Below are positions 11,824 through 56,892 of a DNA stretch of 64,000 nt, piece by piece. The first letter of the stretch is position 1. Each line of letters opens with the position of its first letter. A program made the position numbers and the translations under genes. The stretch lies in assembly GCA_016930935.1 (NCBI GenBank), contig JAFGFT010000049.1:2184-66183 (forward strand). The letters are read 5' to 3'. The notes beneath the pieces were generated by a model. That model searched no databases and was not told the origin of the DNA. It worked only from the letters and a program-made list of their open reading frames with translations. Source of the DNA: Dehalococcoidia bacterium (GTDB lineage: Bacteria; Chloroflexota; Dehalococcoidia; GIF9; AB-539-J10).

Positions 11824-11909
11824 CAGGCAACGCGCTATCTCACCACTGGAAAGAGCGGCACGCTACCCGCTGTATGAGATTGCGGCAGCAGGCAATGAAG
11901 GAGGGACAC

Positions 11910-12768: not shown

Positions 12769-13764
12769 ATGGCAAGACAGCTTCGACTGTTGAGTGCGAG
12801 CGACCTGAACGGAACGTTGCGCATGCAGGACGTGCTTCAGCACGTCGAGAGGGCGTTTGGAGAGAGAGGCCTCGGCAGGTCTGAGATGCCCGCCAAGACG
12901 TACCTGCATTTTCCGCAGCATGATGGAGTGCTTCTCGTCATGCCCGGCTCTCTGCCACAGATGGAGCAGGCTGGAGTGAAGCTCATCAGTGTGCATACGC
13001 GCAATCCGGTCGTCCATGGTCTCCCCACACTCCTCTCCACTATTGTGCTCATCAGCCCTGATACCGGCGAACCGGTGTGCATCATGGACGGCTCGTACGT
13101 CACGGGCATGCGGACTGGCGCTGCGACGGGCGTGGCAACAAAGCTACTGGCGCGCAAGGATTCTCGAGTGCTGGGAATAATCGGAGCCGGTTTCGAGGGC
13201 CCCTTTCAACTTGAGGCTGTGAGACACGTCCTTCAACTTGAGAAGGTGCTGGTCAACGACCTCATCGCAGAGAAAGCGAAGAACCTGGCCGCCCTTGCCC
13301 GGGGATTTGGACTCAGTGCGAGGGCGTGCGAGACTGCAGAAGAAGTCGTGCGTAGCTGCGACGTGCTGGTGACCGCAACGCCGAGTGACCGTCCCATCGT
13401 GAAGGACGAATGGATGCACGAGGGTATGCATCTCAACTGCGTTGGCTCCTATGCGGCGGGCAAACAGGAGATTGAATCTGCGATTCTCAGGCGTGCGATG
13501 GTGGTTGTTGACGACTGGGAGCAGGCGAGCCACGCAGGAGAGATAAACGTACCGGTCAGCAATGGAGAATTCGACCGGTCAGGCGTGTACGCGGAACTGC
13601 CGGAGATAGCGGCAGGACTGAAACCCGGCCGCATGGATGATGCGGCCATCACCGTATTCGATACAACCGGCCTTGCGGTGCAGGATGTGGTCACGGCATG
13701 GGCAGCGTTCAGAGTTGCTGAAGAAAGAGGTCTGGGCACAGTAATCGACGCGCTGTTCAGATGA
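12769..13764 (+). CDS. ornithine cyclodeaminase / mu-crystallin family protein
   Basis: Start moved to ATG 12769 behind GGAAGGGGG. Motifs LGIIGAGFEGPFQLEAV, VTATPS, NCVGSY. Confidence 0.85.
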   Translation: MARQLRLLSASDLNGTLRMQDVLQHVERAFGERGLGRSEMPAKTYLHFPQHDGVLLVMPGSLPQMEQAGVKLISVHTRNPVVHGLPTLLSTIVLISPDTGEPVCIMDGSYVTGMRTGAATGVATKLLARKDSRVLGIIGAGFEGPFQLEAVRHVLQLEKVLVNDLIAEKAKNLAALARGFGLSARACETAEEVVRSCDVLVTATPSDRPIVKDEWMHEGMHLNCVGSYAAGKQEIESAILRRAMVVVDDWEQASHAGEINVPVSNGEFDRSGVYAELPEIAAGLKPGRMDDAAITVFDTTGLAVQDVVTAWAAFRVAEERGLGTVIDALFR

Positions 13765-14001
13765 CGACGCCTGTGGTTGTGTCAGGTACTGCCGGCTCAC
13801 GCCCGCATACCTCTCTCTGGTCAAGGCTATCGTCTTCGCCGCCCCTCCCATTATCAGGTCCCCTCTTTCCACATGGTTCTGTATCCGTAGTCGGCGCTTC
13901 TCCTTCCGGTTCGATGTCAGCATCTCCTGCATGCGGACATGTTCGCGAAGACCCTGGGGGAAGGACAGGATAGCAAACAGCTAGAAGGGGGTTCACTTTC
14001 A

Positions 14002-14030
14002 TTGACAAAGAATGGGTGTTCCTGTAAACA
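14002..14030 (+). promoter_or_regulatory. candidate sigma70-type promoter for the TRAP operon
   Basis: TTGACA (14002-14007), 17-nt spacer, TAAACA (14025-14030), about 55 nt upstream of the dctP ATG. The -10 element is imperfect. Confidence 0.3.
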
Positions 14031-14084
14031 AACGAGAAGACAGCGACGACAATTGCTTGCGAACCAACTGTGAAGGAGGGCGAG

Positions 14085-15188
14085 ATGAAACACAAGTTTA
14101 TCATGTCGGTACTAGCAGTAGCAGTCATTGCGAGCGTGCTGGCTGCTGGATGTGCGCCTGAAGCAGCGCCATCTACACCCACACCAGAAGAAGGAGAGGC
14201 AGTGACACCTTCACCTGCAGCACCAGAGGGAGAGGTAATCGAGTGGTTGGGGCAACATCATGATGCTGCGGGAGGTTCCAAGAACAAGCGCTTCCAGGAG
14301 TTCTGCGATCGAGTCAACCTGGCGAGCAATGGGAGGATGAAGCTCACGTTGCAGGCGGGTGGCGGCATCGTACCGGCAACTGAAGAGTTCGATGCTACAC
14401 ATAAGGGTCTCATAGACTTCTGTGAAGCTTACTCCCCCTATGTCCTCGATGTGTTTCCCAACGCAGGCCTGTTTGCCTACACCGTTGGCGGCCTCTCGGC
14501 TCTGGAGTACGTGTATTGGATGAGGAACGGAGGTGGTGCAGCTCTATACGACGAGATGCTTGATGGCTATGGTGTGACTCTCATTCACGGCAAACTCTTC
14601 CCTCCAGAGACGTTCATCTGGACAACGAAACCCCTGGAGACTGTGGCCGACATGAAAGGGTTGAAGTTCCGGACTGCCGGCGACGACGGGGAGATGTTCA
14701 AGGAAATGGGTGTGTCGGTCGTCTTCATGGCAGGTGGCGAGGTGTATGAAGCGACACAACGTGGAGTTATCGACGCCTTCCAGTTGGCTGACCCCGCAAT
14801 CGACATAGAGTTGGCCGCTCATGAGGTCGCCGACTATTGCTATCTGTCGCCAGTGCGCCAACCTACTGACTACTCCTGCCTTGGTATCAACACCGAATCG
14901 TGGGAGGCACTACCTGCTGATCTCAAACAGGTGGTTGACGACGCCTACCTGGCGAACTCACTTGCCGTCTACGGTGAACTCATGGCCTCGAATATTGAGG
15001 CACTCAAGTTCCTCAAGGACTATGGCACGACAGTCGGGCCAATTCCCAAGGAAATTGAAGACGAGTTGATCAGGCAAGCGAACCTGTTCTACGACAAGAA
15101 GGCTGCTGAGGACCCGTTCTATGAGGAAATACTCACGTCTATGCGCGAATTCAAAGCTGCGTACGGCGAGGCTTATGCCCGCTACTAG
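14085..15188 (+). CDS. dctP: TRAP transporter substrate-binding protein (DctP family), lipoprotein
   Basis: Start moved to ATG 14085 behind GAAGGAGGG. Lipobox LAAGC followed by a Pro/Glu-rich linker. Adjacent to DctQ/DctM. Confidence 0.85.
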   Translation: MKHKFIMSVLAVAVIASVLAAGCAPEAAPSTPTPEEGEAVTPSPAAPEGEVIEWLGQHHDAAGGSKNKRFQEFCDRVNLASNGRMKLTLQAGGGIVPATEEFDATHKGLIDFCEAYSPYVLDVFPNAGLFAYTVGGLSALEYVYWMRNGGGAALYDEMLDGYGVTLIHGKLFPPETFIWTTKPLETVADMKGLKFRTAGDDGEMFKEMGVSVVFMAGGEVYEATQRGVIDAFQLADPAIDIELAAHEVADYCYLSPVRQPTDYSCLGINTESWEALPADLKQVVDDAYLANSLAVYGELMASNIEALKFLKDYGTTVGPIPKEIEDELIRQANLFYDKKAAEDPFYEEILTSMREFKAAYGEAYARY

Positions 15189-15206
15189 CCTTTAGACTGG
15201 CTGTTT

Positions 15207-15236
15207 CCCCGGTTTGAGGCCGACCTCAAACCGGGG
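15207..15236 (+). other. intercistronic 13-bp perfect stem-loop between dctP and dctQ
   Basis: CCCCGGTTTGAGG CCGA CCTCAAACCGGGG. No T-tract follows, so it is more likely an mRNA-stability or attenuation element than a full terminator. Confidence 0.7.
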
Positions 15237-15263
15237 ATTCTATGAAAGGCGCTAGCAACACTT

Positions 15264-15773
15264 ATGAAAGCTATTCTTAGAACAATTGATTCATTGAGTC
15301 AGTGGTCAGGAAAGAGCGCTCGATGGCTGGCCCTGGCATTGGTCCTGGTGATGGCAAACGAGACCATCATGCGCTATGTGTTCAATAAGCCGACGGTGTG
15401 GGGGTTTGAGACAGCCGTTATGATGGGTGCTTCCCTGTACGCCCTGGGTGCTTCTTATGCACATTGGACTCACTCCCATATCAGGATTGATGTCTTCTAC
15501 TCCCGCCTTTCCGTGAGGAAGAGGACAATCATTGACGTACTTGGCACCATATTTGTGTGTTTCCCCCTGATGGTCGTATTGGTGAGCGCATCCGTCAGTA
15601 ACGCATGGGCAGCCTGGGTAGGGCACGAGACCCTGAAGTTGACCTTCTGGTATCCACCGTCGGGACCGCTGCGGACAGTGGTGGCAGTGGGATTCGTTCT
15701 GCTCAGCCTTCAGGTCATAGCCCAGTTCTTCCGAGACGTATATCTGCTGATAAGGAATACGCCCTATGATTGA
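15264..15773 (+). CDS. dctQ: TRAP transporter small permease (DctQ family)
   Basis: 169 aa with 4 TM helices. Overlaps dctM by 8 nt. Confidence 0.85.
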   Translation: MKAILRTIDSLSQWSGKSARWLALALVLVMANETIMRYVFNKPTVWGFETAVMMGASLYALGASYAHWTHSHIRIDVFYSRLSVRKRTIIDVLGTIFVCFPLMVVLVSASVSNAWAAWVGHETLKLTFWYPPSGPLRTVVAVGFVLLSLQVIAQFFRDVYLLIRNTPYD

Positions 15774-17100
15774 GTTAAGCCCGGCAGTGGTTACATTGTT
15801 GATGCTCGCTGCGGTCTTTATAGGCCTGCTGAGTGGTTTCCCCGTGGCCTTCGTTCTGGGGGCGGCGGCGATAGCCTTTGGATACCCCATATTCGGAAAC
15901 CTGGTCGCTGAGCTCATCTATGACCGTGTGTGGGGTTTCTATACAAACTACATCATTCTGGCAGTGCCCCTCTTTGTCTTCATGGGGCTCATGCTGGAAC
16001 GCTCCGGAGTGACTGAGAGACTGTACGATGCGTTGTACCTATGGTTGGGTGGGTTCAGGGGTGGACTTGCCGTAGTCACCGTGCTGGTCGGTACTATACT
16101 GGCTGCCTGCATAGGCGTGATTACCGCTTCAGTCACTCTGCTGACGCTTATTGCACTGCCCTCAATGGTAAGGCGAGGCTACAGCAAGAGCCTGGCAACC
16201 GGCGCAGTCGCCGCTGGCGGCTGTCTGGGTATTCTCATCCCACCGAGCGTCATGCTTGTTGTGTACGGCCCCATGGCTGCGATTTCCGTGGGGAAGCTGT
16301 TCTTTGGAGCCTTCGGGCCCGGTCTTCTGCTTTCGGCTTCGTACATCACCTACATCATTATTCGGAGTCTGCTTCAGCCCAACGTGGCACCTCCGGTGCC
16401 TGCCGCAGAAAGGGCAGTTCCCTTCCGTGAGAAGACAATCAGACTTCTCACCGTGCTGGTTCCGCCCATGGTGCTCATCTTCTCCGTGCTGGGAGTCATC
16501 TTCTTCGGCATCGCTGCGGTCACCGAGGCTGCCGGTATCGGCGCTCTTGCCGCAGTTGCACTCGCCATAGCCTACCGCAAGTTCACCTGGCAGGTGCTGA
16601 AAGACGTCACATTGCTGACAATGCAACTCAGTGGTTGGGTGATGCTCATGGCAGGGATGGCCTTCGCCTTCACGGGTGTCTTTATAGGAGCTGGAGGCGG
16701 TCTCATCGTCAAGGACCTCATTCTTGCCACCCCCGGTGGCTCATGGGGTGCCTTCGCTGTAATCATGCTTATTACCTTCATCCTCGGCTTCTTCATTGAC
16801 TGGTGGGGCATCGTCTTCATCATGGTTCCGATAATCACTCCCATTGTTCCTGCCCTGGGATTCGACCCTGTCTGGTTTGCGATTATGGTGTGTGTTAACC
16901 TCCAGATGGCTTTCATGACTCCGCCCATGGCTGCGGCCATATTTCTTGTGAAGGGCGCCGCTGAGCCAAGTCTGGGCATAACCACCCCTGACATCATACG
17001 AGGTGTGGTGCCATTCGTGGGGATGATAGTCATCACCCTAGGCTTGTGTGTGGCCTTCCCCCAGATAATTACCTGGTTGCCCAATATGATGATCAAGTAG
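15766..17100 (+). CDS. dctM: TRAP transporter large permease (DctM family)
   Basis: 444 aa, about 12 TM helices. ATG overlaps the dctQ stop. Confidence 0.9.
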   Translation: MIELSPAVVTLLMLAAVFIGLLSGFPVAFVLGAAAIAFGYPIFGNLVAELIYDRVWGFYTNYIILAVPLFVFMGLMLERSGVTERLYDALYLWLGGFRGGLAVVTVLVGTILAACIGVITASVTLLTLIALPSMVRRGYSKSLATGAVAAGGCLGILIPPSVMLVVYGPMAAISVGKLFFGAFGPGLLLSASYITYIIIRSLLQPNVAPPVPAAERAVPFREKTIRLLTVLVPPMVLIFSVLGVIFFGIAAVTEAAGIGALAAVALAIAYRKFTWQVLKDVTLLTMQLSGWVMLMAGMAFAFTGVFIGAGGGLIVKDLILATPGGSWGAFAVIMLITFILGFFIDWWGIVFIMVPIITPIVPALGFDPVWFAIMVCVNLQMAFMTPPMAAAIFLVKGAAEPSLGITTPDIIRGVVPFVGMIVITLGLCVAFPQIITWLPNMMIK

Positions 17101-34012: not shown

Positions 34013-35188
34013 TCAGCCGAGGTTGCCGGACATTCCGAGTATGACGAGTATTCCGAGGATGATGATGAGGCCAATGGCAGCGGCGAGCAGGACATAGTCG
34101 CCCGTGGTCTTCTCTTTTCGCTTGCGCGTTCCAGATCCGGCAGTGTGGGAATAGTCCCAGACAGGGGGTTGCTGTCGACGCGGAGCGCTGCCTTTCCTCT
34201 TCCTTGGCGCCCGTTCCGGTATCGGAGCGTCCGAAGGAGCTGCACGGCCAATCTGGTCCGGCGTGAAGAAATTCCTGCACACCACACAGCACCAGAGTTC
34301 CTGCTGGTCGCTGTAGACGAGTCCCGCACCACAGTGCGGACAACCAGGTTGAGATGGGCGTCGCTTTCTGCTGCTGCGACGCGGAGCAGGTGAAGACTGA
34401 ACCGTGGTATTCCAGGTATCCGTAGTCCTATCGAAGTCGAAGCGGCGTCCGTTGCACTGTGAATTGGCACAGCGCCATGTGCCCTGCTCGATGTCATAGA
34501 GCATCATTGGCAGTCCGCAGTGCGGGCATTCATCGCGCAGCGGCTTGTGGCATTTCCAGCAGGGTTCGTTCATGCGTGAAACGTTCGGGTTGAGCGCGCC
34601 ACAGTAGGTGCATTTCTTGATGAGGCCACGCTCCGCAGAGGGTCTGAGCCATTCATCCACAAGTGCAGGCCACGCAGGGTTGCTCAACTTTGCCTTGCGG
34701 TCACTCTCTGTCAGGGGTGAGAACGCATCGCAATTCGTTTGTGGCGTACTGTACGGGCACAGGAATGGCTCGCGGTCGTAGAATCGCGCACACCATGAGC
34801 ATTGTGTGGCTTGAAAGGCACGAAATCGTATTCTTCGGAGAGGTGGTGCCTGTGGGGCGTCTATAGCCTGCAATTCAGGGGAGCCGGCGACGTCGAAGCG
34901 GCAGCCGCAGTGCTTGCACTGCCAGCGGTTGTAGTTCATTGCGATGACTTCGTGTGTCCCGCAGGTCGGGCACTCGACCGGACAACGGTCGTACTCAGCC
35001 CGGGACTTCTCGTCTACAAGGACCTGGTAGGCCGTGTTGATGCGACGAAACGTCGCCTCGGCCTCAGGTTTGCCGGGGTTGCGGTCGGGATGCCACAGAC
35101 GGGCGAGCCTGCGGAAGGACGCGTTGATGTCCTCTTGTGTGGCCTCTCTGCTGAGTTCGAGAACCTCGTAGTAGTGGTATTTCCTCAT
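34013..35188 (-). CDS. J-domain (DnaJ-like) protein with multiple zinc ribbons and C-terminal TM anchor
   Basis: YYEVLEL...LARLWHPDRNP (HPD motif). At least five CxxC...CxxC ribbons (CPTCG/CKHCGC, CTYCG/CWKC, CPHCG/CANSQC, CPHCG/CVVC). Terminal LLAAAIGLIIILGILVILGM. Confidence 0.8.
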   Translation of the reverse strand: MRKYHYYEVLELSREATQEDINASFRRLARLWHPDRNPGKPEAEATFRRINTAYQVLVDEKSRAEYDRCPVECPTCGTHEVIAMNYNRWQCKHCGCRFDVAGSPELQAIDAPQAPPLRRIRFRAFQATQCSWCARFYDREPFLCPYSTPQTNCDAFSPLTESDRKAKLSNPAWPALVDEWLRPSAERGLIKKCTYCGALNPNVSRMNEPCWKCHKPLRDECPHCGLPMMLYDIEQGTWRCANSQCNGRRFDFDRTTDTWNTTVQSSPAPRRSSRKRRPSQPGCPHCGAGLVYSDQQELWCCVVCRNFFTPDQIGRAAPSDAPIPERAPRKRKGSAPRRQQPPVWDYSHTAGSGTRKRKEKTTGDYVLLAAAIGLIIILGILVILGMSGNLG

Positions 35189-47800: not shown

Positions 47801-49251
47801 CGCACCACGCTGACGAAGAGTGGCCCGCCATCACTTTCAAAGGTCTTTGCCCTTACCGCTACGTCTATTGGCGAACCGTCACTGCGGCGGTGGCGCGTCT
47901 CAAAGGAGAACTCTCCATGCTCGATCATGGCGCTGATGCGAGCAGGAACCTGGTCCGCGAAGTCGGGCGCGTTGAGGTCCTTCACTGTCATGGAGAGCAG
48001 CGCGTCTCTTGAGAAGCCTGTCATAGCGGATGCGGCTTCGTTGGCGTACAGGATTTGACCTTCATCATTAATGAGGTAGATTGCGTCGTTCGCGTTGTCG
48101 AGCAGCATGCCTCGTAAACGCAACTCTTCATCGCTATGCTTGCGCTCGGTGATATCTCTTGCCACACCCACCATACCGACAAGGGTGCCGGTGTTGTCGC
48201 GCAACCCTTTGACGATGTTCTCGGTCCATACGGTGGAGCCATTCTTGTGGTAGTACTCGACCTCGACTGTGAGTGCCCTGGCAGGGTCGGCATCGCCGAG
48301 TGTCTCGCGATGCAGTTCCTGTTTCAGTGCGTCCATTATGGTTGCAGCGGATTCAGGCGTTACCATGTCCTGCAACCCCTGTCGCATACGCTCTTCGAGT
48401 GAGAACCCGAGCACCCGTTCCATTGAAGGGCTCACGTACGTCGTGTTGAAGTTGAGGTCCATCGTCCAGAAGATGTCGGCGATATTGTCTGTGACGAGTC
48501 GTAGTCGTTGTTCAGACTGGCGCAACTCCTGTTCAGACTTCACACGCTCTGAGATATCACGGGCCACGGAGAGAATCAGAGGTCGGTTGTCGAGCATCAT
48601 CCGTGTTGCCCTGACCTCGATGGGGAACTGCGAACCATCCTTGCGGAATGTAAGGAGTTCAAATCTGGCGTGTCCGTCGCGCCGGAGCGTGGTGCCGATC
48701 TCTTCCCAGCGTTGTGCCTGGTCTGGAGCTTCAAGGTCGTGCAGAGTCGCATGGGCAAGCTCATCTCGTGTATAGCCTCTTGATATGGCTGTCGCCTCGT
48801 TGAAATAGAGGATGTTCCCCTGAGGGTCATGGACGATGATGCAGTCCGTGGCGAGGTCGAGCAGCCTGTCCCTGATGACCAGGTCATTCTGTTCATGTTT
48901 CTGAGAGGTGATGTCGATCGACGTGCCTATGAGTCCGACGGCCTTGCCGTGATCGTCCAGAATCGGTGCTTTGTCGGTGAGCACGAAGCGAAGTCCATCA
49001 GGCCCATTATAGGTCTCCGTGATTCCGAGTCTTGGCGAGCTAGAGTTGATGACCTCTCGGTCGACTCGGGCTGATTCAGGGCCGAGTTCTCCCAGTAGTT
49101 CCTCTGATGACGTTCCGATGACTTGGTCCAGTGTGACGCCGAAATTGTCACAGAAGGCCTTGTTGGCGCTCACTATATTGAGATTGCGGTCCTTGACGTA
49201 GACCATCGTAGGGAGGGCGTCAAGAGCCGGGTGTAGCTCAAATAACTCCAT
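44839..49251 (-). CDS. sensor histidine kinase with ten PAS domains, HisKA_3 + HATPase_c
   Basis: 1470 aa, no TM segment. Phospho-acceptor context ARDLHDNIGQGLTAL (NarX/DegS-type dimerisation domain). ATPase N-box LQELLTNIARHS and G-box DNGVGI. Confidence 0.9.
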   Translation of the reverse strand: MELFELHPALDALPTMVYVKDRNLNIVSANKAFCDNFGVTLDQVIGTSSEELLGELGPESARVDREVINSSSPRLGITETYNGPDGLRFVLTDKAPILDDHGKAVGLIGTSIDITSQKHEQNDLVIRDRLLDLATDCIIVHDPQGNILYFNEATAISRGYTRDELAHATLHDLEAPDQAQRWEEIGTTLRRDGHARFELLTFRKDGSQFPIEVRATRMMLDNRPLILSVARDISERVKSEQELRQSEQRLRLVTDNIADIFWTMDLNFNTTYVSPSMERVLGFSLEERMRQGLQDMVTPESAATIMDALKQELHRETLGDADPARALTVEVEYYHKNGSTVWTENIVKGLRDNTGTLVGMVGVARDITERKHSDEELRLRGMLLDNANDAIYLINDEGQILYANEAASAMTGFSRDALLSMTVKDLNAPDFADQVPARISAMIEHGEFSFETRHRRSDGSPIDVAVRAKTFESDGGPLFVSVVRDITDTKRMELELRASEEKYRALVNSINDVVYALDADGVVTFISPQVEALSGIRAEDIVGRRFTEFVHPEDLPSIAQSWERLVLGIMEPSDFRVSDAEGRVRHVRSSSRPLFENGVFMGATCSLVEITARVEAEQSLQNSERKYRELFEQSLDAVSLAAPDGRVIEANPAWFRLFGYAPEDIAHLNARDMYAVPTDRDTFLSNISMQGYLKDDEVPMKTKDGRSLHILRSVIARHAPDGEIIGYQTVFRDITHSKAAEQALRESEEKYRELFEQSVDAVNLVTPDGRLLEANPAWFRLFGYTPEDISSYTASDAYVEPDGRARFLQAIASQDHVEDESKFRRKDGTIFDCHRIVTVRRSPDGGIIGFQTVFHDITESKAAERALREREQQYRQLFDQSIAPICLITVDGNLIEANDAWFNLLGYSREDTASFNAANLFPSPEMRPDFVQLLLRNGSLDNYESPVKTKDGRLIDIVRSISVRYHADGSILGFQTVMRDISEQKKAERQRIESAKRFHTLFNLSRDATYLMSPDGRLTEVNQAWLDLFGYTRDDVNQLNLFNLFADGTEAGAPIFAELENRGMVTGADVRLLKRDGTTMECICDMVLHQVEDGQVVAIQGATRDVTEQRRAERALRESEARFRTLSENLDDTVARLDRDCRMLYVNPALDRLSGVPHQDMVGRCLSDFSGLSQETLNATRDAIMHVFASGRPLSGSMDVQTHGGQRSIDWHMSPERDDDGVIQTVLMHLHDITDLRQTQEKLRLAGERLRELSGHLQDAREQERTALARDLHDNIGQGLTALKFDLMSLKKQLRQEADREDAISKVDNVAAMVDSLALDVRHLSTELRPGMLDDLGLCAAIEWQVGSFVERTGIQCGLSLPENDEQIPPNIAIVLYRVLQELLTNIARHSKATAARASLSMNEDSVTLEIADNGVGISSGGVETPHSFGILGIRERLRPINGRFTISGKRHKGTVAAVHVPLARRGEKP
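45532..47382 (-). repeat. five tandem 123-125-aa PAS modules (aa 624-1240) inside the kinase
   Basis: Module heads are ERKYRELFEQSLDAV, EEKYRELFEQSVDAV, EQQYRQLFDQSIAPI, AKRFHTLFNLSRDAT, EARFRTLSENLDDTV. The first two also share ANPAWFRLFGY(A/T)PEDI. Confidence 0.8.
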
Positions 49252-49458
49252 TGGTCCAGATGTGGGCTTGCCAACGGGGGCAAGCGATGGGTCCAGTTGG
49301 TCCAGCTGAGGTGTCTCCGGTTGGGTGTGACAGTCGTATCCGAGCGGTCAGTCTACCATATTCCGAGAAGTATCGATAGACGTGTCTTCGGCCACATGGT
49401 TGGACGAGTTGAGACGGACCTGTGAGCAAACCATACACCTGGAAGATGTTCTTAGGAG

Positions 49459-50142
49459 CTACGTATCCGAGGGTAGAGTCTCTTTCCTGCGCAGCTTGCG
49501 GTAGTAGGAGTGCGAGAGGTACAAGCCAGCCGCCGGATTGTGGCCGAAAACCCTGTCTTTGGCGATGAGTACCGTGGTGGGCGCCTCTGCGTACTTGAAG
49601 AACAGTGAATCGTGTCCCACACAAAGGCCGACCAGTACATTGAACTCAGTATGTGACTCGTTCAGAATCTTCGCCTGGGCGATGGGGTTACACATGGTCT
49701 CCCATTTGCCTGACCCCTTGATCTTCTGTTCTTCCGTAATCCCGATGGTCTCCTTGGGCATGCCGCCGACCTGGCAGCACACGGACACGACTTCAAATCC
49801 CCTGCGCGTCAGGATTTCATCCAGTATGCCCGCTTCTTTCCTCAGACCGGCACAGAATGCGACACCGAGCCTCTTGTAGCCCATCTTCTTTGCGAACTGC
49901 GCTGTCTCCTCAACCCGTGGGTTTCGTGGCGTCAGTCCTTCGGGCAGGCGCATGTAGCACTCGAACTCCTGAATCGATGCCTGCCTGGCAAACTCCGCCA
50001 CATCCGGCTTCGCGTACTCTGTTCTCACTTCTTCGAGTGTCGAGTGCATCGTTTTCGTAGGGCAGTTGTCGGGTCCCTGGTCGGAGAATTCTGACTCGCA
50101 GACGCGTTTGTCGCAATTCGCGCAGGTGCTGTACTGTTCCAA
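49459..50142 (-). CDS. DUF1847-family metal-binding protein
   Basis: TTG start 5 nt after AGGAGGA. Cys-rich N-terminus CANCDKRVC...CP and later CCQVGG, LCVGHD. Confidence 0.7.
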   Translation of the reverse strand: MEQYSTCANCDKRVCESEFSDQGPDNCPTKTMHSTLEEVRTEYAKPDVAEFARQASIQEFECYMRLPEGLTPRNPRVEETAQFAKKMGYKRLGVAFCAGLRKEAGILDEILTRRGFEVVSVCCQVGGMPKETIGITEEQKIKGSGKWETMCNPIAQAKILNESHTEFNVLVGLCVGHDSLFFKYAEAPTTVLIAKDRVFGHNPAAGLYLSHSYYRKLRRKETLPSDT

Positions 50143-50228
50143 GATTGTCCTCCTGATTGCTCACACGGGGCGCTCGTGGCCAGGCGTGAGTGATATGGCG
50201 CGTCGTCGGTGTCGGGAACCGTTGGAAG

Positions 50229-51200
50229 TCAATCGAGGGTGAGCCTTCGCACAAAGAAGCGCTGCTCCCCGTATATGACTTCGCGTAGCTTCCCCTGCCC
50301 CACCATCCACTCGGCGAGGTCCGGTTCAGCGCCTGACTTCTGCAGAAATGCTGCCACCTGGTCGGAGCGCATGGGGTGGACGGACGTGATGGCGAGCAGG
50401 TCATCTTCGGTGTTGCCCTTCGAATCGAAGGTTGTGCCCTCGTAGCCGGTCAGCAGTTCGACCCGTTCGACTGCAGCGCTGAATATCTGGTGCGCACGAA
50501 CAAGGGCGTCCTCTGCCGGTATCTCAACGCCATGGACTGCAGGCGGGCGGATGGGCACTGACAGATATGCAGTGTGTGGCTGTAGCCACTTGAGGAAAGC
50601 TGACAGGGGCAAGAGGTCGTCGGCGGAATCGTTCAGGTCTTTCACGAGCATGGTCTCGGTGTCGAGTTCGCCTTTGTACTCATGGGCAAACTGCAGTACG
50701 CCGTCGAGCACTGTTTCAAGTCTCAGGTCGCCGTGAGGCCGGTCGATGCGACGCCACGTGTCATGCCGTACTGCATCCACCTTGACGCTCACCCTGTCGG
50801 CACCCATGAGCGCACGTCGTACGTCAGGGTCGTGAAGCAACGACGCGTTCGTGATGACTGCAACCGGTATGCCGAACTGGCTGAGAAGTTGTACTTGGTC
50901 GCCGAGGTGCGCTTCGAGCGTTGGCTCTCCATCGGGAACGAAGGCCAGGTAGTCAATTGGTGTGCCATTCTTGCGCAGTTTCTCCAGTGTCCACTTCACA
51001 TCGGCATGCAGTTCGCCGGGGTCACAGTGAGGCGTGCGGCGTATCGTCAAGTGGTCGGTGGTGCCGAGCTGACAGTACACACAGGAATAAGTGCAGGTCT
51101 TTGGAGCGATGGCGTTGATGCCGAGGCTACGCCCGAATCGTCTCGACGGCACGGGGCCGAATGTCCGTGCGGGTTCTGCAGAGAATGACTGATTGTTCAT
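50229..51200 (-). CDS. radical SAM protein (COG0731/Tyw1-related type)
   Basis: FGPVPSRRFGRSLGIN followed by CTYSCVYC (CxxxCxxC). Confidence 0.8.
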   Translation of the reverse strand: MNNQSFSAEPARTFGPVPSRRFGRSLGINAIAPKTCTYSCVYCQLGTTDHLTIRRTPHCDPGELHADVKWTLEKLRKNGTPIDYLAFVPDGEPTLEAHLGDQVQLLSQFGIPVAVITNASLLHDPDVRRALMGADRVSVKVDAVRHDTWRRIDRPHGDLRLETVLDGVLQFAHEYKGELDTETMLVKDLNDSADDLLPLSAFLKWLQPHTAYLSVPIRPPAVHGVEIPAEDALVRAHQIFSAAVERVELLTGYEGTTFDSKGNTEDDLLAITSVHPMRSDQVAAFLQKSGAEPDLAEWMVGQGKLREVIYGEQRFFVRRLTLD

Positions 51201-51276
51201 GCTTCACCTGGCAATGGCCGGGCGAAGTCTAGCACGTGAATGCAGCGGAGACCATGGTTGCCGTGGATGTGCGCGT

Positions 51277-51531
51277 TCACTTCGGGGGTATGAACGGGTC
51301 CTTGCACTTTGGCCAGGGTATCCCATACTTCGCCCCGCGGTACTGGTACAGAACACACCGGTCGAGCATGCCACCCCTGCGGCGCTTCTGTTCGTTGAAC
51401 AGCGCTTCAGGGTCGGCCTCGAACATCTGTTCGGGAGTCTCGATGCCGAGGGCGAGCAACTCCCGGGCCGTCTTCTCTCCTACGTTCGGCAACAACTGAA
51501 GCTTCTTCAGCGTCTCCTGCTCGGAATGCAC
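51277..51531 (-). CDS. helix-hairpin-helix protein (Cdd1 / mitomycin-resistance-like family)
   Basis: GTG start 2 nt after the IscU-DUF59 stop (TAATCGTG). LLPNVGEKTARELLALGI is an HhH motif. Confidence 0.65.
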   Translation of the reverse strand: MHSEQETLKKLQLLPNVGEKTARELLALGIETPEQMFEADPEALFNEQKRRRGGMLDRCVLYQYRGAKYGIPWPKCKDPFIPPK

Positions 51532-51533
51532 GA

Positions 51534-52169
51534 TTATTCTGTGAACCTCACCTCAACTTCATTCACGTCCCACAGGGGCGATATCTTCTCCATGACTTCC
51601 TCATGAATGTTGTGTGCGAACTGGTTCGTGGCGGGAAGGTCTATGGCGACGGTCACCTTGCCCTTCTCAATCATGATGCCCGTCACGAGTTCGGTCTTGA
51701 CAAGGTCGAGTCCCACAAGCGGGTTCATGACCTTCTTGAGTCTGCGTCGGACCTCTTCCACGGTGGTTGGCTTCCTCTCCTTGACCATGCCGTGGGTTTC
51801 CTCGTAGTTCTCGATTGCGGCGCGCAGACCGTCAACGGCGAGAACAGAGCAATGGGCCTTGATGGCGGGCAATCCACCCAGTTCTTCGGATGCCTGTTTC
51901 CAGGAAATGTCCTTTGCCTCATCGAGGGTCTTGCCTTTGGCGAGTTCCGTGATGATAGAGCCGGTTGCGATATTTGAGGCACAACCGTACGATTCGAACT
52001 TGATATCCTCAATCTTTTTCGTCTCGTCGTTCACCTTCAGGTAGACACTCACCATGTCACCGCAGGCAGGGCTGCCCTCGGTTGCTTTTGCGTTGGAGTC
52101 ATCCAATTTGCCCACATTTCTGGGGTTCTTGAAGTGGTCGAGTACTCTCTCAGTGTACGGAAACGTCAT
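51534..52169 (-). CDS. IscU/NifU-type Fe-S scaffold fused to a DUF59 (MIP18/SufT-like) domain
   Basis: Start moved to ATG 52169 behind AGGAGG. IscU cysteines are in SPACGDM, SYGCASN, KAHCSV. The C-terminal 95 aa VRRRLKKVMNPLVGLDLV...VTVAIDL are DUF59-like. Confidence 0.8.
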   Translation of the reverse strand: MTFPYTERVLDHFKNPRNVGKLDDSNAKATEGSPACGDMVSVYLKVNDETKKIEDIKFESYGCASNIATGSIITELAKGKTLDEAKDISWKQASEELGGLPAIKAHCSVLAVDGLRAAIENYEETHGMVKERKPTTVEEVRRRLKKVMNPLVGLDLVKTELVTGIMIEKGKVTVAIDLPATNQFAHNIHEEVMEKISPLWDVNEVEVRFTE

Positions 52170-52257
52170 CTGGCGTCCTCCTTCTTCCGCTGAAGTGGCA
52201 CGAAGCGCCACCTGTTCTGCGGCGTCGATTGCTTCGCTCCGGCATAGCGGCCACAAC

Positions 52258-52920
52258 CTATTTTAGCGCAGCCAGAACCTCCGCTGCGTGCTGCACGCCC
52301 AATGGGGGGCTCATGAGTACGGGAACCGGTGTCTCTCCGAGGTCGGGCTTGAGCGCAAGCATACTTCCCTGTGCGCAGACTACCACATCAACTTTCTGCG
52401 CGAGCTTACGGATGGAGGCGATGACCATTTCGTTGTGCTTCTTGCGGTCACCGGCGATGAGTCTTTCGAATGCGCCGCTGGTGATTTCCTCCGTCACAGA
52501 GACGGTCTTGCCAAGTCTTTCAGCGGTGCTCTTGATGAGACGGACAGTCGGACCCATCGTGGTGGCAAGGGTGGCGACGACACCGATGCGGGGCCCTGTC
52601 TGGCAGGAGATTTCGGCCATTCGTTCATCCACTTTGACGACAGGCACCTTGACCATCTTCGCTGCCATCGTCGCGACTTCTCCGACGGATGAACACTGGT
52701 TGAAGATGAGGTCGGCTCCGGATGCCTCTGCCTGCATGTAGTATTCGCACATTCTCCGTGTGACGCCCGGCGTGACGCCGCCATTCGCGAGTACCTCGGG
52801 CAGAAGGCTGTCATCCACGATGTTTCGTACGGTGACGTCCGGCGCATACTCCTGGAAGAGCGTGTTCAAATCGTTCAACGACACACCGCTGGTGTGGACT
52901 ATGAAGACTGTCTTTCCCAT
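52258..52920 (-). CDS. Asp/Glu/hydantoin racemase-family protein (paralogue A)
   Basis: 220 aa. Two conserved Cys at positions 76 (NQCSS) and 182 (VCAQGS), as in two-thiol racemases. Confidence 0.7.
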   Translation of the reverse strand: MGKTVFIVHTSGVSLNDLNTLFQEYAPDVTVRNIVDDSLLPEVLANGGVTPGVTRRMCEYYMQAEASGADLIFNQCSSVGEVATMAAKMVKVPVVKVDERMAEISCQTGPRIGVVATLATTMGPTVRLIKSTAERLGKTVSVTEEITSGAFERLIAGDRKKHNEMVIASIRKLAQKVDVVVCAQGSMLALKPDLGETPVPVLMSPPLGVQHAAEVLAALK

Positions 52921-53017
52921 GTTCCTTCCTCCTCAATCCGAAAGTCTGCGTATATCTGCGCCGCGGCTGTCCTGAGCGAGCCCGTCGTTGTGAGGGGTGC
53001 CCCGGATTTCTTTCTGC

Positions 53018-53680
53018 CTACTTCAACGTGGCCAGAACGTCGGCGGCGTGCTTGATTCCAAGTGGTGGACTCATCAGGACGGGGACGGGAGTCTCTCCAA
53101 GCTCCGGCTGCAATGCCAGCATACTGCCCTGGGCGCAGACGACGACATCGACAGTGTTCATCAACTCTCGAATCGCAGCGAGGACAATCCTGTTGTGGCC
53201 CTCCTTGTCGCCGACGATGATGCGCTCAAATGCGTCTGCACAGAGAACCTCTGTGACAGTTGCCTCCGTGCCAAGCCGTGCTGCTGTTCTCATGATGAGG
53301 CGAACGGTTGGCCCCATCGTTGAGGATGCGGTGGCGACCACGCCGATACGGCTGCCGGTGTGGCAGGCAACCTCTGCCATGCGCTCATCTATTTTCACGA
53401 GAGGAATCGTTACCATGCTTCGTGCGATGTCTGCTGCTTCGCCCACAGAGGAGCACTGGTTGAGGATGAGGTCTGCGCCTGCCATCTGTGCCTGCACTGC
53501 GTACGTGCAGTAGCGTCGCAGTACCCCCGGAGTGACACCTCCATTGGCCAGTACCTCGGGCAGCATGCTGTCGTCGATGATATTTCTGACCGTGACGTCG
53601 GGGGCAATCTCCCCGAACAAGCGCATGAGGTCTTCTCCGGCAAGCCTGTTGGTGTGGATGATGAATACTGTCCTGGACAT
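53018..53680 (-). CDS. Asp/Glu/hydantoin racemase-family protein (paralogue B)
   Basis: Start moved to ATG 53680 (MSRTVFIIHTN). Collinear with paralogue A at roughly two-thirds identity by eye. Same NQCSS and VCAQGS motifs. Confidence 0.7.
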   Translation of the reverse strand: MSRTVFIIHTNRLAGEDLMRLFGEIAPDVTVRNIIDDSMLPEVLANGGVTPGVLRRYCTYAVQAQMAGADLILNQCSSVGEAADIARSMVTIPLVKIDERMAEVACHTGSRIGVVATASSTMGPTVRLIMRTAARLGTEATVTEVLCADAFERIIVGDKEGHNRIVLAAIRELMNTVDVVVCAQGSMLALQPELGETPVPVLMSPPLGIKHAADVLATLK

Positions 53681-53769
53681 CGTCTTCTCCCTTGTCCTGT
53701 TCTGTTTTGCACTCCTGCACAGGGCTCTATGTACGTCCATATTGCGCTGAGCCGCAGAGGGATACCATC

Positions 53770-54945
53770 CTACGCTTTGTCCTCACGAGGAACGAGAGGA
53801 CTGATCTTGCGCAGGTCACTGACAACCTGGGAAACCGCATCGACAATACCGTCGACTTCCTCCGTTGTGTTGAATCTGCCGAAAGTGAATCGTATCGAAC
53901 CGTGCGCCCGTTCATGGTCGCCGCCGATGCCGAAAATGACGTGGCTTCCTTCAAGGGAGCGAGAGAAGCACGCGGAGCCGGTGCTGACCGCGAAGCCCCG
54001 CATGTCGAGATGCAGGGTGATGGACTCTCCCTCCACATAGTGGAACGTGACATTCGCGTTCTGAGGTGTGCGGTTGGTGGGGTGCCCGTTGAGCGTGGAA
54101 TGAGGCACCTCGGCAAGCAGCCGTTGTATCGTACGGTCTCTCAAGGCCGCCAACGCCTCGTTTTCCTCAGGAGTGACAAGCGCCGCTGCCTTCGCGAATC
54201 CTACCGCCGAGGGTATGTTCTCCAGACCTGCACGAAGGTCGTATTCCTGGAAGCCGCCGTCCATCCACTTCGCGATAGGGGTCTTCTTTCTTATGAACAG
54301 TCCACCTATTCCACGTGGACCGTGAATGGTGTGGGCTGCGACGCTCATCAGGTCAATCGGCACAGTGTTCATGTCCACCGGCACACGGGTGAAGGAATGC
54401 GTGGCGTCTGTGTGGAAGAGCGTACCTTTCTCTTTGCAGATCTTCGCGATTGTCGAGATGTCCTGTATCGTGCCTATCTCCTGGTTGGCGTGCTGTATGG
54501 ACACGAGTATGGTTTCCTTCGTGATGGCCTTCTGGAGTGCCTCAAGGTCCACTAATCCGTCACCGTCGACAGGCAGATAGGTGACCTTGAAACCCTGCCG
54601 TTCAAGCGCCTGTGCGCTGTGGAGCACGGGGAAATCCTCTATCTTCGAGACGATGATGTGTGTGCCCTTCTTCTGGCCGAGCGCGAGCGCCACTCCTTTC
54701 AGTGCCATGTTGCTCGATTCGGTGCTGCCCGAGGTGAAGATGAACTCCTCAGGTGACGCTCCTATCCGCGCTGCAAGTGAACCTCGAGCACTGTCAAGCG
54801 CTTCGCGGGATTCGATTCCGAGCGAGTATCCGAACTCTGAGGTGGCAACGGCGTAGGTTTCGAAGAAGTAGGGAGTCATGGCCTCGAGGACACGCTCATC
54901 AAGCCGTGTTGCTGCCGCGTTATCCAGGTAGGTGCACTTCTGCAT
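53770..54945 (-). CDS. IscS/NifS-type class V aminotransferase-fold protein lacking the PLP-binding lysine
   Basis: YLDNAAATRLDERV, QHANQEIG, FHTDATH, and active-site loop STGSAC all align with IscS. The SGHK motif reads SVAAHT (Thr206, codon ACC at 54330-54328). Confidence 0.85.
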   Translation of the reverse strand: MQKCTYLDNAAATRLDERVLEAMTPYFFETYAVATSEFGYSLGIESREALDSARGSLAARIGASPEEFIFTSGSTESSNMALKGVALALGQKKGTHIIVSKIEDFPVLHSAQALERQGFKVTYLPVDGDGLVDLEALQKAITKETILVSIQHANQEIGTIQDISTIAKICKEKGTLFHTDATHSFTRVPVDMNTVPIDLMSVAAHTIHGPRGIGGLFIRKKTPIAKWMDGGFQEYDLRAGLENIPSAVGFAKAAALVTPEENEALAALRDRTIQRLLAEVPHSTLNGHPTNRTPQNANVTFHYVEGESITLHLDMRGFAVSTGSACFSRSLEGSHVIFGIGGDHERAHGSIRFTFGRFNTTEEVDGIVDAVSQVVSDLRKISPLVPREDKA

Positions 54946-54969
54946 ATTGTCCTCCCTCTCGATTGCCGG

Positions 54970-55404
54970 CTAGATAAATAGAGTAATACTGGATTCCCGT
55001 GCTTCCTGGATGTATGAACCCACGGCGCAGTAATCTGTGATGATGTCGTCGCGCAGGTCTTCCTTCTTGATGCCCATGAGTTCCATCGTCATGTCGCAGG
55101 CCATCAGCTTTCCGCCCAGCTCAATAAAATCGTCGAGCATCCTGTTCATGCTCGCCACGTTGGCTCGCTTCATACGTTGCTTTATCATCCATTTGCCAAG
55201 GCCGAGCATGTGCATCCTGGACAGGGGGCCTTTGTCGAGTTGGCCCTTCTTGAGGCACTGCAGGCCCCAGAAAGTGAAGAACATGGACGCTTCCATTCCC
55301 ATGGCAAGCGCTCCGTTGGCGATGATGAGTGCGCTGAAGACCTTGTCGAATTCGCCGCTCTGGACGACTATCGTCGCTTTCTCTTCCATTCTCCCTCCCC
55401 TCAT
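54970..55404 (-). CDS. DsrE/DsrF-like (DrsE_2-type) sulfur-relay family protein
   Basis: ATG 55404 overlaps the TusA-like stop (ATGA); an alternative ATG at 55389 follows GGAGGGAGA. About 140 aa, with IVVQSGEFDKVFSALIIANGA and KLMACDMTMELMG. Confidence 0.65.
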   Translation of the reverse strand: MRGGRMEEKATIVVQSGEFDKVFSALIIANGALAMGMEASMFFTFWGLQCLKKGQLDKGPLSRMHMLGLGKWMIKQRMKRANVASMNRMLDDFIELGGKLMACDMTMELMGIKKEDLRDDIITDYCAVGSYIQEARESSITLFI

Positions 55405-55622
55405 CTCCGAATGCGGATAGTCCAGCGTTCTCCATCTTCCTTGACGTCGAGGACTTCCAGCCCCATGGCTCTCGCCGCCATGGGAATCTCTTTCTTTGAG
55501 GAAGGATGGGTGCCCACAACCTCCACCACATCGCCGATGGCGGCCTTTCTCAGCGCCTTCCGGGTTTCCACCAGCGGTACGGGGCAGTTCTGCCCAGCGC
55601 AGTCAACCTTGATCTCTGCCAT
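55401..55622 (-). CDS. TusA/SirA-like sulfurtransferase
   Basis: ATG 55622 is 7 nt after GGAGG (the track start GTG 55628 abuts the SD). Active-site motif DCAGQNCPVPL (CPxP). Confidence 0.8.
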   Translation of the reverse strand: MAEIKVDCAGQNCPVPLVETRKALRKAAIGDVVEVVGTHPSSKKEIPMAARAMGLEVLDVKEDGERWTIRIRR

Positions 55623-55917
55623 TGACACACCTCCGTCCCATCAATGATACCCCAGCACGCAGGGATATGCATTGCCACAAGGATGATTGTGTTCCCTTCC
55701 CGCAGGCGAACTGTCACTCCATTCGAAGTTCGTCACTGGCTTCGGACTGCGCTGCAAAGGAGATATGCACACGTGTCGTACGGGAAACCGTCACGCCTCG
55801 CCACTGCACGAGAGCTTTACAGCGCAACAGGCGATATCCACTACCGAGGGCCTGCCTCCGGCCGATGTCTCCTTTGGCAGCCCCTCGCTTCAGTCAAGAT
55901 GTGTGCTCCAGGTTCTT

Positions 55918-56892
55918 CTACTTGTCGTAGACCTGGCGGTTGATGCAGTTCGGTATGCGTTCTCCCCGCATGCCGATAATTAGTTGTTCTATGGCCATGG
56001 TCCACATCTTTCTACGAGTCTCTATGACTGCGCTGCCGATATGGGGCATGATGAGGATGTTGTCCAGTGTGAAGAGCGGGCTGTCGAGAGGGAGTGGCTC
56101 TGTGCTGGTGACATCGATTGCGGCGCGCAATATCTTGCCTGTCTTCAGCGCGTCGTAGAGTGCTTTATCGTTCACGACGGGTCCGCGCGCCACGTTCACG
56201 AGGATGCTGGTGGGTTTCATCACCGCGAACTCGTCCTTGCCCATCAGGTTTCGGGTCTGGTCCGTCAGGGGAACGGTCAGGATGACGAAATCGGACTCCG
56301 CGAGGAGACCGTGAAGCGTGTCGCGGTATTCAGCACCAAGAAGCGATTCGGCGGTCAGGTCTCGATTACGGTTGTGATAGAGCACGCGCATGTTGAATCC
56401 GTTCGCACGTTTGGCGACGTGGGAGCCTATATGGCCCATCCCGACGATACCGAGCGTCTTGTTATTGACATCGACCCCCGGGAGATCGAGGTGTGCGTGT
56501 GCTTTCCAGCGTCCATCGCGAGCGAACTGCTGTCCTTCCACGACCCTGCGTGCAGCGGCCAGAAGCAGCGCAAAGCCGAGGTCGGCGGTGGTCTCCGTGA
56601 GCACGTATGGCGTATGACCGACCGGGATGCCACGTCGTGTAGCCTCGGCAAGGTCAATATGGTCGCAGCCGTCTCCCATGTTGCTGATGCATTTCAGGTC
56701 AGGCATAGCGTCGAAGACCTCGGCATTGATGCGATTGGCAACGGTCATGATTCCCTGAAGTCCCGGCGCCTCGCGCAACATGGCCTCTACCGGCATCTCT
56801 TCCACACCTTCCCATACCTTGTAGTCATGGATGCCGTCGAGACGCTTCGTGATGTCCCTGAAGAAGTTCTTGCAGATGTAGACGTTGGCCAT
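55918..56892 (-). CDS. D-isomer-specific 2-hydroxyacid dehydrogenase (glyoxylate/hydroxypyruvate reductase-like)
   Basis: Start moved to ATG 56892 behind AGGAGGA. NAD motif GIVGMGHIGSHVA; catalytic region ARGPVV ... MPHIGSA. Confidence 0.85.
   Translation of the reverse strand: MANVYICKNFFRDITKRLDGIHDYKVWEGVEEMPVEAMLREAPGLQGIMTVANRINAEVFDAMPDLKCISNMGDGCDHIDLAEATRRGIPVGHTPYVLTETTADLGFALLLAAARRVVEGQQFARDGRWKAHAHLDLPGVDVNNKTLGIVGMGHIGSHVAKRANGFNMRVLYHNRNRDLTAESLLGAEYRDTLHGLLAESDFVILTVPLTDQTRNLMGKDEFAVMKPTSILVNVARGPVVNDKALYDALKTGKILRAAIDVTSTEPLPLDSPLFTLDNILIMPHIGSAVIETRRKMWTMAIEQLIIGMRGERIPNCINRQVYDK

Follow-up and report, generated by a model that had tools for sequence, protein, structure and literature searches.

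A lysine-less IscS1-type paralogue of cysteine desulfurase with an apparently rebuilt cofactor pocket, encoded in a TusA-DsrE-IscU cassette of a Dehalococcoidia bacterium

The stretch of DNA analysed here, henceforth the window, comprises 64,000 nucleotides of contig JAFGFT010000049.1 from the assembly GCA_016930935.1 of a Dehalococcoidia bacterium, and carries on its minus strand a run of genes encoding, in this order, a TusA-family protein, a DsrE2B-like protein, a relative of the cysteine desulfurase IscS, two paralogues of the Asp/Glu/hydantoin-racemase family and a fusion of the scaffold protein IscU with a DUF59 domain (table 1). Our subject is the IscS-like protein, which a first-pass annotation of the sequence had described as an IscS/NifS homologue having threonine in place of the lysine that anchors pyridoxal 5'-phosphate (PLP), and had likened to the inactive IscS of Archaeoglobus fulgidus. 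That annotation further suggested that the protein may act independently of PLP as a scaffold partner or in handling sulfide, with sulfur supplied by the TusA and DsrE-like proteins encoded upstream, an interpretation which is partly supported by the evidence presented below and points in the right direction.

The protein spans its superfamily at full length. Pfam Aminotran_5 covers it end to end (protein residues 5-365, model positions 1-369 of 371, E = 4.7e-68), and the class V aminotransferase fold is complete in both the Pfam match and the predicted structure. Among solved structures it is matched best by type I cysteine desulfurases, namely 9wep (3.7e-99), A. fulgidus IscS2 (4eb5, 7.7e-99), human NFS1 and Escherichia coli IscS. 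The AlphaFold2 model has a predicted local distance difference test score of 95.6, with lower values at the Cys loop, as for a mobile loop, and Foldseek superimposes it upon NFS1, E. coli IscS and A. fulgidus IscS with template modelling (TM) scores of 0.92-0.95 and root-mean-square deviations of 1.2-1.7 Å. Around the Schiff-base lysine, phmmer places the query segment svaAHTihGPRG without gaps over sfsAHKmyGPKG of the cysteine desulfurase 9wep, and likewise without gaps over issnDiyGPKG of 4eb5. When the query is aligned by MAFFT with E. coli IscS and 93 relatives that bear the lysine, the column of E. coli K206 holds residue 206 of the query, and no lysine of the protein falls there. The E. 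coli sequence in this alignment gives the published numbering H104, D180, Q183, K206 and C328. The nearest lysines, K220 and K221, lie 14 residues downstream of Thr206, in the segment that aligns with a surface Arg patch of E. coli IscS. The collinearity with IscS, the threonine in the lysine column and the retained STGSAC loop, all read from the sequence at the outset, are thus borne out by independent alignments.

The threonine is a constant character of a whole clade. It occupies column 206 in all 120 of the nearest database homologues and in 81 of the 82 readable relatives from fetched genomes, the remaining one having Ser, and all four of its codons are in use (ACC 40, ACG 16, ACA 10 and ACT 10). 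The ACC codon of the window was correctly placed by the first-pass annotation, as was its distance of two base changes from AAR; positions 54230-54379 are covered, with zero differences, by a Logan contig of an unrelated run (X2) on a sediment metagenome, and no contig over the codon was found in the 56% of the source run (X1) that was searched. The STGSAC motif is present in 120 of 120 homologues, and the loop Cys is conserved at 100% in the clade. As for expression, one contig from a metatranscriptome of the source study matches positions 53812-53959 of the window identically, and RNA contigs from marine sediments are 97-99% alike to the gene; they are consistent with its transcription, though DNA carry-over in RNA runs is possible.

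In E. coli IscS (1P3W), PLP is contacted by His104, Asp180, Gln183, Ser203, His205 and Thr243 of the other subunit; His104 stacks on the ring of the cofactor, Thr243 binds its phosphate, and Gln183 and Asn155 contact O3' and the substrate. We compared this pocket between 203 distinct Thr-bearing relatives and the 93 Lys-bearing ones, considering the positions that are fixed in each set and different between the two (table 1). The comparison shows that the loss of the lysine, although real, is not the sole change: at least six positions contacting PLP or the substrate have been swapped for other invariant residues. K206T, H104D, N155Q, Q183H, N35A and T243L/I each reach a fixation of at least 88-100% in the Thr-bearing set, as against 96-100% for the canonical residue in the Lys-bearing one. 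In addition, the motif around Asn35 (GNP) reads V-A-T-S-E in the Thr clade, after a one-residue insertion, and Ser203 has become Ala in the window protein. Asp180, His205, Arg354 (Arg352 in the window protein) and Cys328, in E. coli numbering, are kept at 99-100% in the Thr clade. Within this clade the mean pairwise identity is 76% and 126 of the 391 positions are invariant, as against 45% and 13 positions in the Lys-bearing set. Across the relatives, both synonymous codons are found for each of Asp104, His183, Gln155 and Cys326, and this variety, like that of the Thr codons, bears the mark of purifying selection on the new residues. We therefore regard the pocket as a selected alternative set of residues, reflecting neither error nor decay, and the catalytic apparatus as replaced, not just lost, the replacements being as invariant as the originals. 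Since the Schiff-base lysine is missing, lysine-Schiff-base chemistry of PLP, with its internal aldimine, is not available to the protein, which has lost most contacts with PLP and substrate and probably binds no PLP and has no desulfurase activity.

The type of protein to which the window sequence conforms has been noted before. Deere et al. (2020) described three iscSU clusters in Methanosarcina acetivorans and reported that IscS1 (MA0808) lacks 'PLP-binding residues' and the 'catalytically essential lysine'; the protein, marked as detected in the proteome, was left uncharacterised, and the authors suggested for it an action like that of A. fulgidus IscS; in the same isc1 cluster, IscU1 (MA0807) is enlarged to 24.2 kDa and is accompanied by MA0809 ('DrsE superfamily') and MA0810 ('SirA-like') (PMC7585200). 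The signature motifs IEDFP, DATHS, AHT(I)HGP, RAG(L/I/V)EN and STGSACFS are all present in the window protein, and the IscS1 row in Fig. S2 of that paper has IEDFPV, TATHSF, SAHTIHGPRG, RAGVEN and STGSACFS. These shared motifs identify the window protein as an orthologue of MA0808, a member of the already-noted IscS1 type and not a new kind of protein. What was already known is thus the absence of the PLP residues from IscS1, published in 2020, together with the cassette, which was noted but left uncharacterised (PMC7585200). Our literature search with the locus tags MA0807-MA0810 found no paper beyond Deere et al. 2020, and in the portions of the literature that it reached there was no description of the breadth and invariance of the IscS1 family.

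This breadth is considerable. A scan of one genome per species gave at least 599 pattern matches, at least 543 of which encode a relative of the query (tblastn E ≤ 1e-3), a count that takes in ordinary IscS/NifS-like genes; the survey of loci concerns the best 80 of these at least 543, which are 69-83% identical to the query. All four cassette genes are present in 74 of the 80 loci, 73 of which have them in the order TusA-DsrE-IscS1-IscU::DUF59 and one in a rearranged form, and the remaining loci are either interrupted by contig ends (four) or lack the partners (two, in Anaerolineae). When all neighbouring open reading frames (ORFs) are clustered, only the four cassette families recur, and the set is found in unrelated neighbourhoods even at 66% identity. 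Bacterial hosts include Dehalococcoidia (the nearest, at 82-83%), Anaerolineae, Syntrophales, Thermodesulfovibrionales/Nitrospirota and Actinomycetota. Archaeal hosts include Methanothrix, isolates of Methanolobus vulcani and M. psychrotolerans, Methanomethylovorans, Methanofastidiosum, Methanomassiliicoccaceae, Altiarchaeales and a bin labelled Thermococci, the relatives from Methanosarcinales (Methanolobus, Methanomethylovorans) and Methanothrix having 69-73% identity to the window protein. The hosts come from sulfidic sediments and sludge. An identity of about 70% between the two domains points to the horizontal spread of a tightly constrained module.

The partner proteins keep their presumed active residues. 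The Cys of the CPxP motif of TusA is invariant in 74 cassette homologues, and the Cys in the ACDMTM motif of the DsrE2B-like protein is invariant in 79 homologues and aligns with the conserved Cys of the nearest structures, 2qs7 and 3pnx. In the IscU domain the cluster ligands, within SPACGD, YGCAS and HCS, are conserved among the cassette homologues, and the structure nearest to the fusion protein is A. fulgidus IscU (4eb5_C, 1.7e-40). The upstream position and family assignment of the first two genes agree with what had been read initially (table 1); the start of TusA was set to the ATG at 55622 to match its homologues, that of the DsrE2B-like protein to Met6 and that of IscU::DUF59 to Met30 of the listed ORFs.

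Table 1. Features of the cassette, residues distinguishing the Thr clade and the canonical operon of related genomes. Positions refer to the window unless another locus is named; fixation is given as canonical set / Thr clade.
Feature	Position	Strand	Basis or fixation
TusA-family sulfur carrier, 73 residues	55401..55622	-	Pfam TusA 2.2e-22
DsrE2B-like sulfur transferase, 139 residues	54970..55389	-	Pfam DrsE_2 6.5e-37
IscS1-type Lys-less paralogue of type I cysteine desulfurase, 391 residues	53770..54945	-	ORF, ATG start, Aminotran_5
E. coli position 35 (FGNPSS motif), Asn to Ala			100% / 100%
Asp104 codon GAT, in place of PLP-stacking His104 (E. coli position 104, His to Asp), then invariant Phe105-Pro106	54634..54636	-	100% / 100%
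Gln155 codon CAG, in place of Asn155 (E. coli position 155, Asn to Gln)	54481..54483	-	98% / 100%
His183 codon CAT, in place of Gln183 (E. coli position 183, Gln to His)	54397..54399	-	96% / 100%
Thr206 codon ACC, Schiff-base Lys column (E. coli position 206, Lys to Thr)	54328..54330	-	codon reading and alignments; 100% / ~100%
E. coli position 243, Thr to Leu, Ile or Met			98% / 98% combined
Cys326 codon TGC, STGSAC loop, equivalent of E. coli Cys328	53968..53970	-	
Asp/Glu/hydantoin-racemase-family gene A	53018..53680	-	Pfam Asp_Glu_race 7.6e-13
Asp/Glu/hydantoin-racemase-family gene B, paralogue of A	52258..52920	-	Pfam 7.5e-16
IscU scaffold with C-terminal DUF59/FeS_assembly_P fusion, 211 residues	51534..52169	-	NifU_N 3.5e-43, FeS_assembly_P 1.7e-12
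Canonical IscS operon	L001 (CP070842) 11848-16888; likewise L003/L004		

In some related genomes the cassette stands beside a conventional system. A canonical operon, Rrf2-CysK(PALP)-CysE(Hexapep)-NIL-IscS-IscU-FdhD, directly adjoins it on the other strand, in divergent orientation, in CP070842, a complete Dehalococcoidales chromosome, and in several other bins, and the IscS of this operon has His104, Gln183, Lys206, Thr243 and the Cys loop; the IscS1-like protein is hence a paralogue of the true desulfurase. The evidence for coexistence with a canonical desulfurase comes from the related genomes. A second IscS-like gene was looked for in the 64-kb window and no canonical desulfurase was found; the other 391-residue ORF (34013-35188, minus strand) was considered as a second desulfurase and rejected as a DnaJ-domain protein. 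Around the canonical operon, genes for HcyBio and Thi4 lie upstream (L001, also L003/L004), and the L001 locus begins with another TusA, accompanied by DsrMK-like genes (Nitrate_red_gam plus CCG).

Lysine loss is not confined to the Thr clade. Of 150 representatives of the IscS/NifS family (50% clustering), about 17 full-length ones are Lys-less, leaving aside P0121 and three fragments, which represent the Thr clade itself: P0123, P0127, P0136, P0149, P0153, P0159, P0194, P0216, P0219, P0230, P0234, P0243, P0245, P0247, P0248, P0253 and P0254. The residues at their Lys column (L, M, T, D, S, G, Q, A, P and R) are so diverse as to argue for recurrent loss across the family. Two of them, P0123 and P0194, have Leu at 206 and are both encoded beside IscU::DUF59 fusions; P0123 clusters closest to the Thr clade and has a gene for TusA besides, and the archaeal P0194 is an outlier far from it. 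Such lineage statements, here and below, are approximate, for they derive from average-linkage clustering on identity.

Other elements of the surroundings are less widely shared. The racemase-family genes, with 0, 1 or 2 copies, are confined to the nearest Dehalococcoidia subclade; both proteins of the window keep the Cys motifs NQCSSVGE and VVVCAQGS, neither has an NCBIfam match, and a search of the PDB with gene A yielded no sequence match. Downstream of the cassette lie genes for a radical-SAM protein (50229-51200, minus strand), with weak NCBIfam matches to viperin/MoaA-type models that remain far under the cut-offs, and for a DUF1847 protein (49459-50142, minus strand), a pair co-conserved with the cassette solely in the nearest Dehalococcoidia subclade (L002, L008, L009 and L012). 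Between IscU::DUF59 and the radical-SAM gene there is an ORF of 84 residues (51277-51531, minus strand) with a helix-hairpin-helix-like motif, LPNVGEKTARELLALGI. The Rfam scan of the whole window gave no match, the promoter and terminator scan of 49000-56300 gave nothing above the shuffled expectation, and nothing recognisable was seen in the 290-nt leader upstream of TusA. A role in selenium metabolism was considered, the best NCBIfam match of TusA being YedF, below the cut-off, and set aside, as no selD or other selenium gene is present among the neighbours examined. Elsewhere, a heavy-metal P-type ATPase with N-terminal HMA domains is encoded about 2.6 kb downstream of the IscS1-like gene in 11 of 81 loci (e.g. 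L029, 6780-9200), and a ribonucleotide reductase large subunit with an intein and a LAGLIDADG endonuclease follows the cassette in L005-L007 (10765-13617), where the relative is 66% identical. In one of the two exceptional Anaerolineae loci (L015, 3600-9600) the neighbours are a Crp-family regulator, rubrerythrin, a 4Fe-4S ferredoxin, a stand-alone DUF59 protein, a ferritin-like protein and an FTR-beta::rubredoxin fusion, which is still an iron and Fe-S context.

In functional terms, these observations raise a question: From where would a protein of this kind draw sulfur, and to what end? On balance we favour the reading that it is a PLP-independent partner of IscU, taking persulfide sulfur from TusA and DsrE via its Cys loop, so that the module would amount to a cysteine-independent relative of the iron-sulfur cluster (ISC) system. 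The dimeric fold of IscS and its mobile Cys loop are kept, with the pocket for PLP and cysteine replaced by the fixed residue set. TusA and the DsrE2B-like protein would carry sulfane sulfur on their invariant cysteines and hand it to Cys326, which would receive it from them instead of from cysteine; the loop may then deliver the sulfur to the IscU domain, ligate the nascent cluster as a transient ligand, or both, and the DUF59 domain would help to pass the cluster on. Such a module would suit sulfidic, anoxic habitats, operating beside the canonical, cysteine-dependent IscS-IscU. The co-inheritance of the four genes across domains and the invariance of the active cysteines support TusA and DsrE as the suppliers of sulfur, as the first-pass annotation had proposed, whereas the direction of sulfur flow, as well as Fe-S cluster assembly as the output, is what we infer. 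Precedents for single steps are the contact between IscS Cys328 and TusA Cys19 in E. coli (PMC11302665), the sulfur carried by DsrE and TusA proteins (PMC11094781) and the ligation of the cluster on IscU by the Cys of A. fulgidus IscS. A further hint comes from the surface of the protein. In E. coli IscS a patch formed by Arg220, Arg223 and Arg225 serves TusA, CyaY and IscX (PMC11302665); the segment aligned with it is followed, in the Thr clade, by the clade-specific and invariant Lys226-Trp227, which hints at a co-evolved docking surface.

Several points weigh against this proposal. Sulfur in E. coli runs from IscS to TusA and on to TusBCD, opposite to the direction we propose; the two Anaerolineae loci hold the protein without TusA, DsrE or IscU; and the M. 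acetivorans IscS1 was insoluble when expressed alone (PMC7585200). Complementation of an E. coli Fe-S mutant by the iscSU pairs of A. fulgidus and Methanothrix failed even when sulfide was added, the Thr type being established for neither pair (bioRxiv 10.1101/2024.03.20.586028). The retention of D180, T75, H205 and R352 also makes it conceivable that a B6 vitamer, or another ligand, is bound non-covalently. Finally, a pure shuttle role leaves the invariance of the rebuilt pocket unexplained, and so leaves room for a new ligand or metal site.

A different reading, which we hold to be unlikely, makes the protein a purely structural partner, with no task beyond holding IscU and supplying, through Cys326, the fourth ligand to a [2Fe-2S] cluster, with free sulfide as the source of sulfur. 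TusA and DsrE would then be no donors; they would take sulfur, or sulfide derived from the cluster, onward, or serve another pathway. This would agree with the structure of the A. fulgidus IscS-IscU complex and the proposal based on it (PMC7585200, PMC8918507), with A. fulgidus IscU being the nearest solved relative of the scaffold, with the sulfidic sediments and sludge in which the hosts live and with the ability of sulfide to feed minimal Fe-S systems (PMC12192291). It leaves unexplained, however, the joint inheritance of TusA and DsrE with the pair in 74 of 80 genomes of two domains, and the fact that the replaced pocket residues stay invariant instead of drifting.

That same invariance lends some appeal to the idea, to which we would nonetheless give a rather low probability, that the pocket has been repurposed: Ala34, Asp104, Gln155, Asp180, His183, His205, Thr206 and Arg352 might bind a new ligand or a metal, Fe(II) for instance, or might promote PLP-independent formation of persulfide from sulfide, polysulfide or thiosulfate, making the protein an enzyme or else a donor of iron. 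Conservation of the replacement residues is 100%, which ranks them with the least variable positions of the protein, two His and two Asp surround the former cofactor site, Arg352 and Asp180 are kept though their canonical ligands are gone, and the exceptional Anaerolineae locus has a ferritin-like protein, rubrerythrin, ferredoxin and a stand-alone DUF59 protein. The conservation could, however, stem instead from the packing of an empty, collapsed pocket. Joining this idea to the transfer of protein-bound sulfur gives a bolder, quite speculative proposal: TusA-DsrE-IscS1-IscU::DUF59 would be an Fe-S biogenesis system in its own right, spread horizontally and fed with sulfur as protein persulfide and not from cysteine. 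Its former PLP pocket (Asp104, Gln155, Asp180, His183, His205, Thr206 and Arg352) would bind Fe(II) or another metal, or else a sulfane-sulfur substrate, and IscS1 would be a PLP-independent enzyme that mobilises sulfur or iron.

It is very improbable, by comparison, that the protein is still a desulfurase of cysteine, or of selenocysteine, working with PLP or pyridoxamine 5'-phosphate (PMP) held non-covalently. Asp180, Thr75, His205, Arg352 and the catalytic Cys are indeed kept, and databases annotate the protein as 'cysteine desulfurase'; but replacements affect the Schiff-base Lys, the His104 that stacks on the cofactor, Asn35, Asn155 and Gln183, and the Thr243 contributed by the other subunit, the NCBIfam equivalog scores lie below every NifS/IscS cut-off (436.3 against 530.75 for NifS, 375.6 against 643.2 for IscS, and 388.2 against 548), and A. 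fulgidus IscS, which lacks only part of the set, is already inactive, its D199K mutant included (PMC8918507). A sequencing or assembly error, or a decaying pseudogene, which the missing lysine might by itself have suggested, is refuted by the intact ORF, the same residue in more than 200 relatives with synonymous codon variation, the independent contig of another study that is identical across the codon, the matching metatranscriptome contigs and the 126 invariant positions.

How sulfur and iron are supplied for Fe-S clusters in strict anaerobes without cysteine desulfurase chemistry is an open question, for which we know of no defined entry route; studies of Methanococcus, of A. fulgidus IscS and of the SUF-like minimal system (SMS) all point to sulfide. 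The module considered here offers a concrete and testable candidate for such a route of sulfur entry, consisting of four small genes with about 70% identity between bacteria and archaea, and M. acetivorans, with MA0807-MA0810, provides a genetically tractable host that has it. The IscS1-like protein is also a clean case of a PLP-enzyme fold in which the cofactor site has been rebuilt, not lost, and its relatives are routinely labelled 'cysteine desulfurase', a matter of some consequence for annotation.

Among known systems, the isc1 cluster of M. acetivorans (MA0810-MA0807) resembles the window most closely in its TusA(SirA)-DsrE-IscS1-IscU1 arrangement and its enlarged IscU, whereas the window copy is bacterial, with Dehalococcoidia-like neighbours at 82-83% identity, and has the two racemase-family genes between IscS1 and IscU. 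The precedent of A. fulgidus IscS, given correctly in the first-pass annotation, stands: the residue at its Lys position is Asp199, desulfurase activity is absent, and in its complex with IscU the Cys of IscS ligates a [2Fe-2S] cluster (PMC7585200, PMC8918507; PDB 4eb5); it binds PMP, and remains inactive even as the D199K mutant (PMC8918507). A. fulgidus IscS2 (4eb5, 4hvk, 4r5f) shares with the window protein the absence of the Schiff-base Lys, the Cys loop, the adjacent IscU and the fold (TM 0.93, E = 7.7e-99, 43% identity). It differs, however, in having Asp and not Thr at the Lys column, in keeping its own Asn35, His104 and Asn155 and in having Ala, Asn and Ser at positions 183, 205 and 243. 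The signature of its type is N-H-N-D-A-N-D-S, against V/A-D-Q-D-H-H-T-L for the Thr clade, and the two form separate clusters at 44% identity. Moreover, A. fulgidus IscU is a chain of 153 residues without a DUF59 fusion, and the publications consulted report no TusA or DsrE partner for A. fulgidus IscS2. As a model it is therefore best taken for an analogue from what appears to be a separate lineage, the true family being that of M. acetivorans IscS1 (MA0808).

The hub formed by IscS in E. coli (IscS-IscU and IscS-TusA-TusBCD) brings together the same four families, namely IscS, IscU, TusA and DsrE-type proteins, TusBCD being DsrEFH-like. The Cys328 loop of IscS contacts both IscU and TusA Cys19, the two cysteines being 4 Å apart in the complex with TusA (PMC11302665). 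The genes of the hub, unlike those of the cassette, are not in one operon, and E. coli IscS is a PLP enzyme that makes persulfide from cysteine and gives it to TusA, which the window protein would be unable to do; hence the flow of sulfur is probably reversed in the cassette, or sourced elsewhere. The minimal ISC (MIS) system, MisS-MisU, of Garcia et al. (2022), as summed up in later papers, is similar in consisting of an IscS-like and IscU-like core in anaerobes without chaperones or carriers (PMC13066941, PMC12442378, PMC12192291). In the loci surveyed here the IscS-like and IscU-like pair is also without recurring HscAB, Fdx or IscA, only the four cassette genes recurring. MIS is described with a cysteine desulfurase, whereas the module of the window has a Lys-less protein with obligate TusA, DsrE and DUF59 fusion, and its sequence argues against a MisS-like active desulfurase supplying sulfur from cysteine. 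Sulfide can feed minimal Fe-S systems (PMC12192291), and DsrE and TusA proteins carry sulfur as persulfide or thiosulfonate (PMC11094781). The DsrE2B/DsrE3A-TusA proteins of sulfur oxidisers such as Metallosphaera and Hyphomicrobium (2qs7, 3mc3) have their counterparts in the window, where the DsrE protein is closest to 2qs7, with its active Cys aligned, and TusA has the Cys of CPxP. In those organisms, however, they feed the energy metabolism of sHdr or Dsr, whereas in the cassette they are linked to an Fe-S scaffold, in anaerobes that do not oxidise sulfur.

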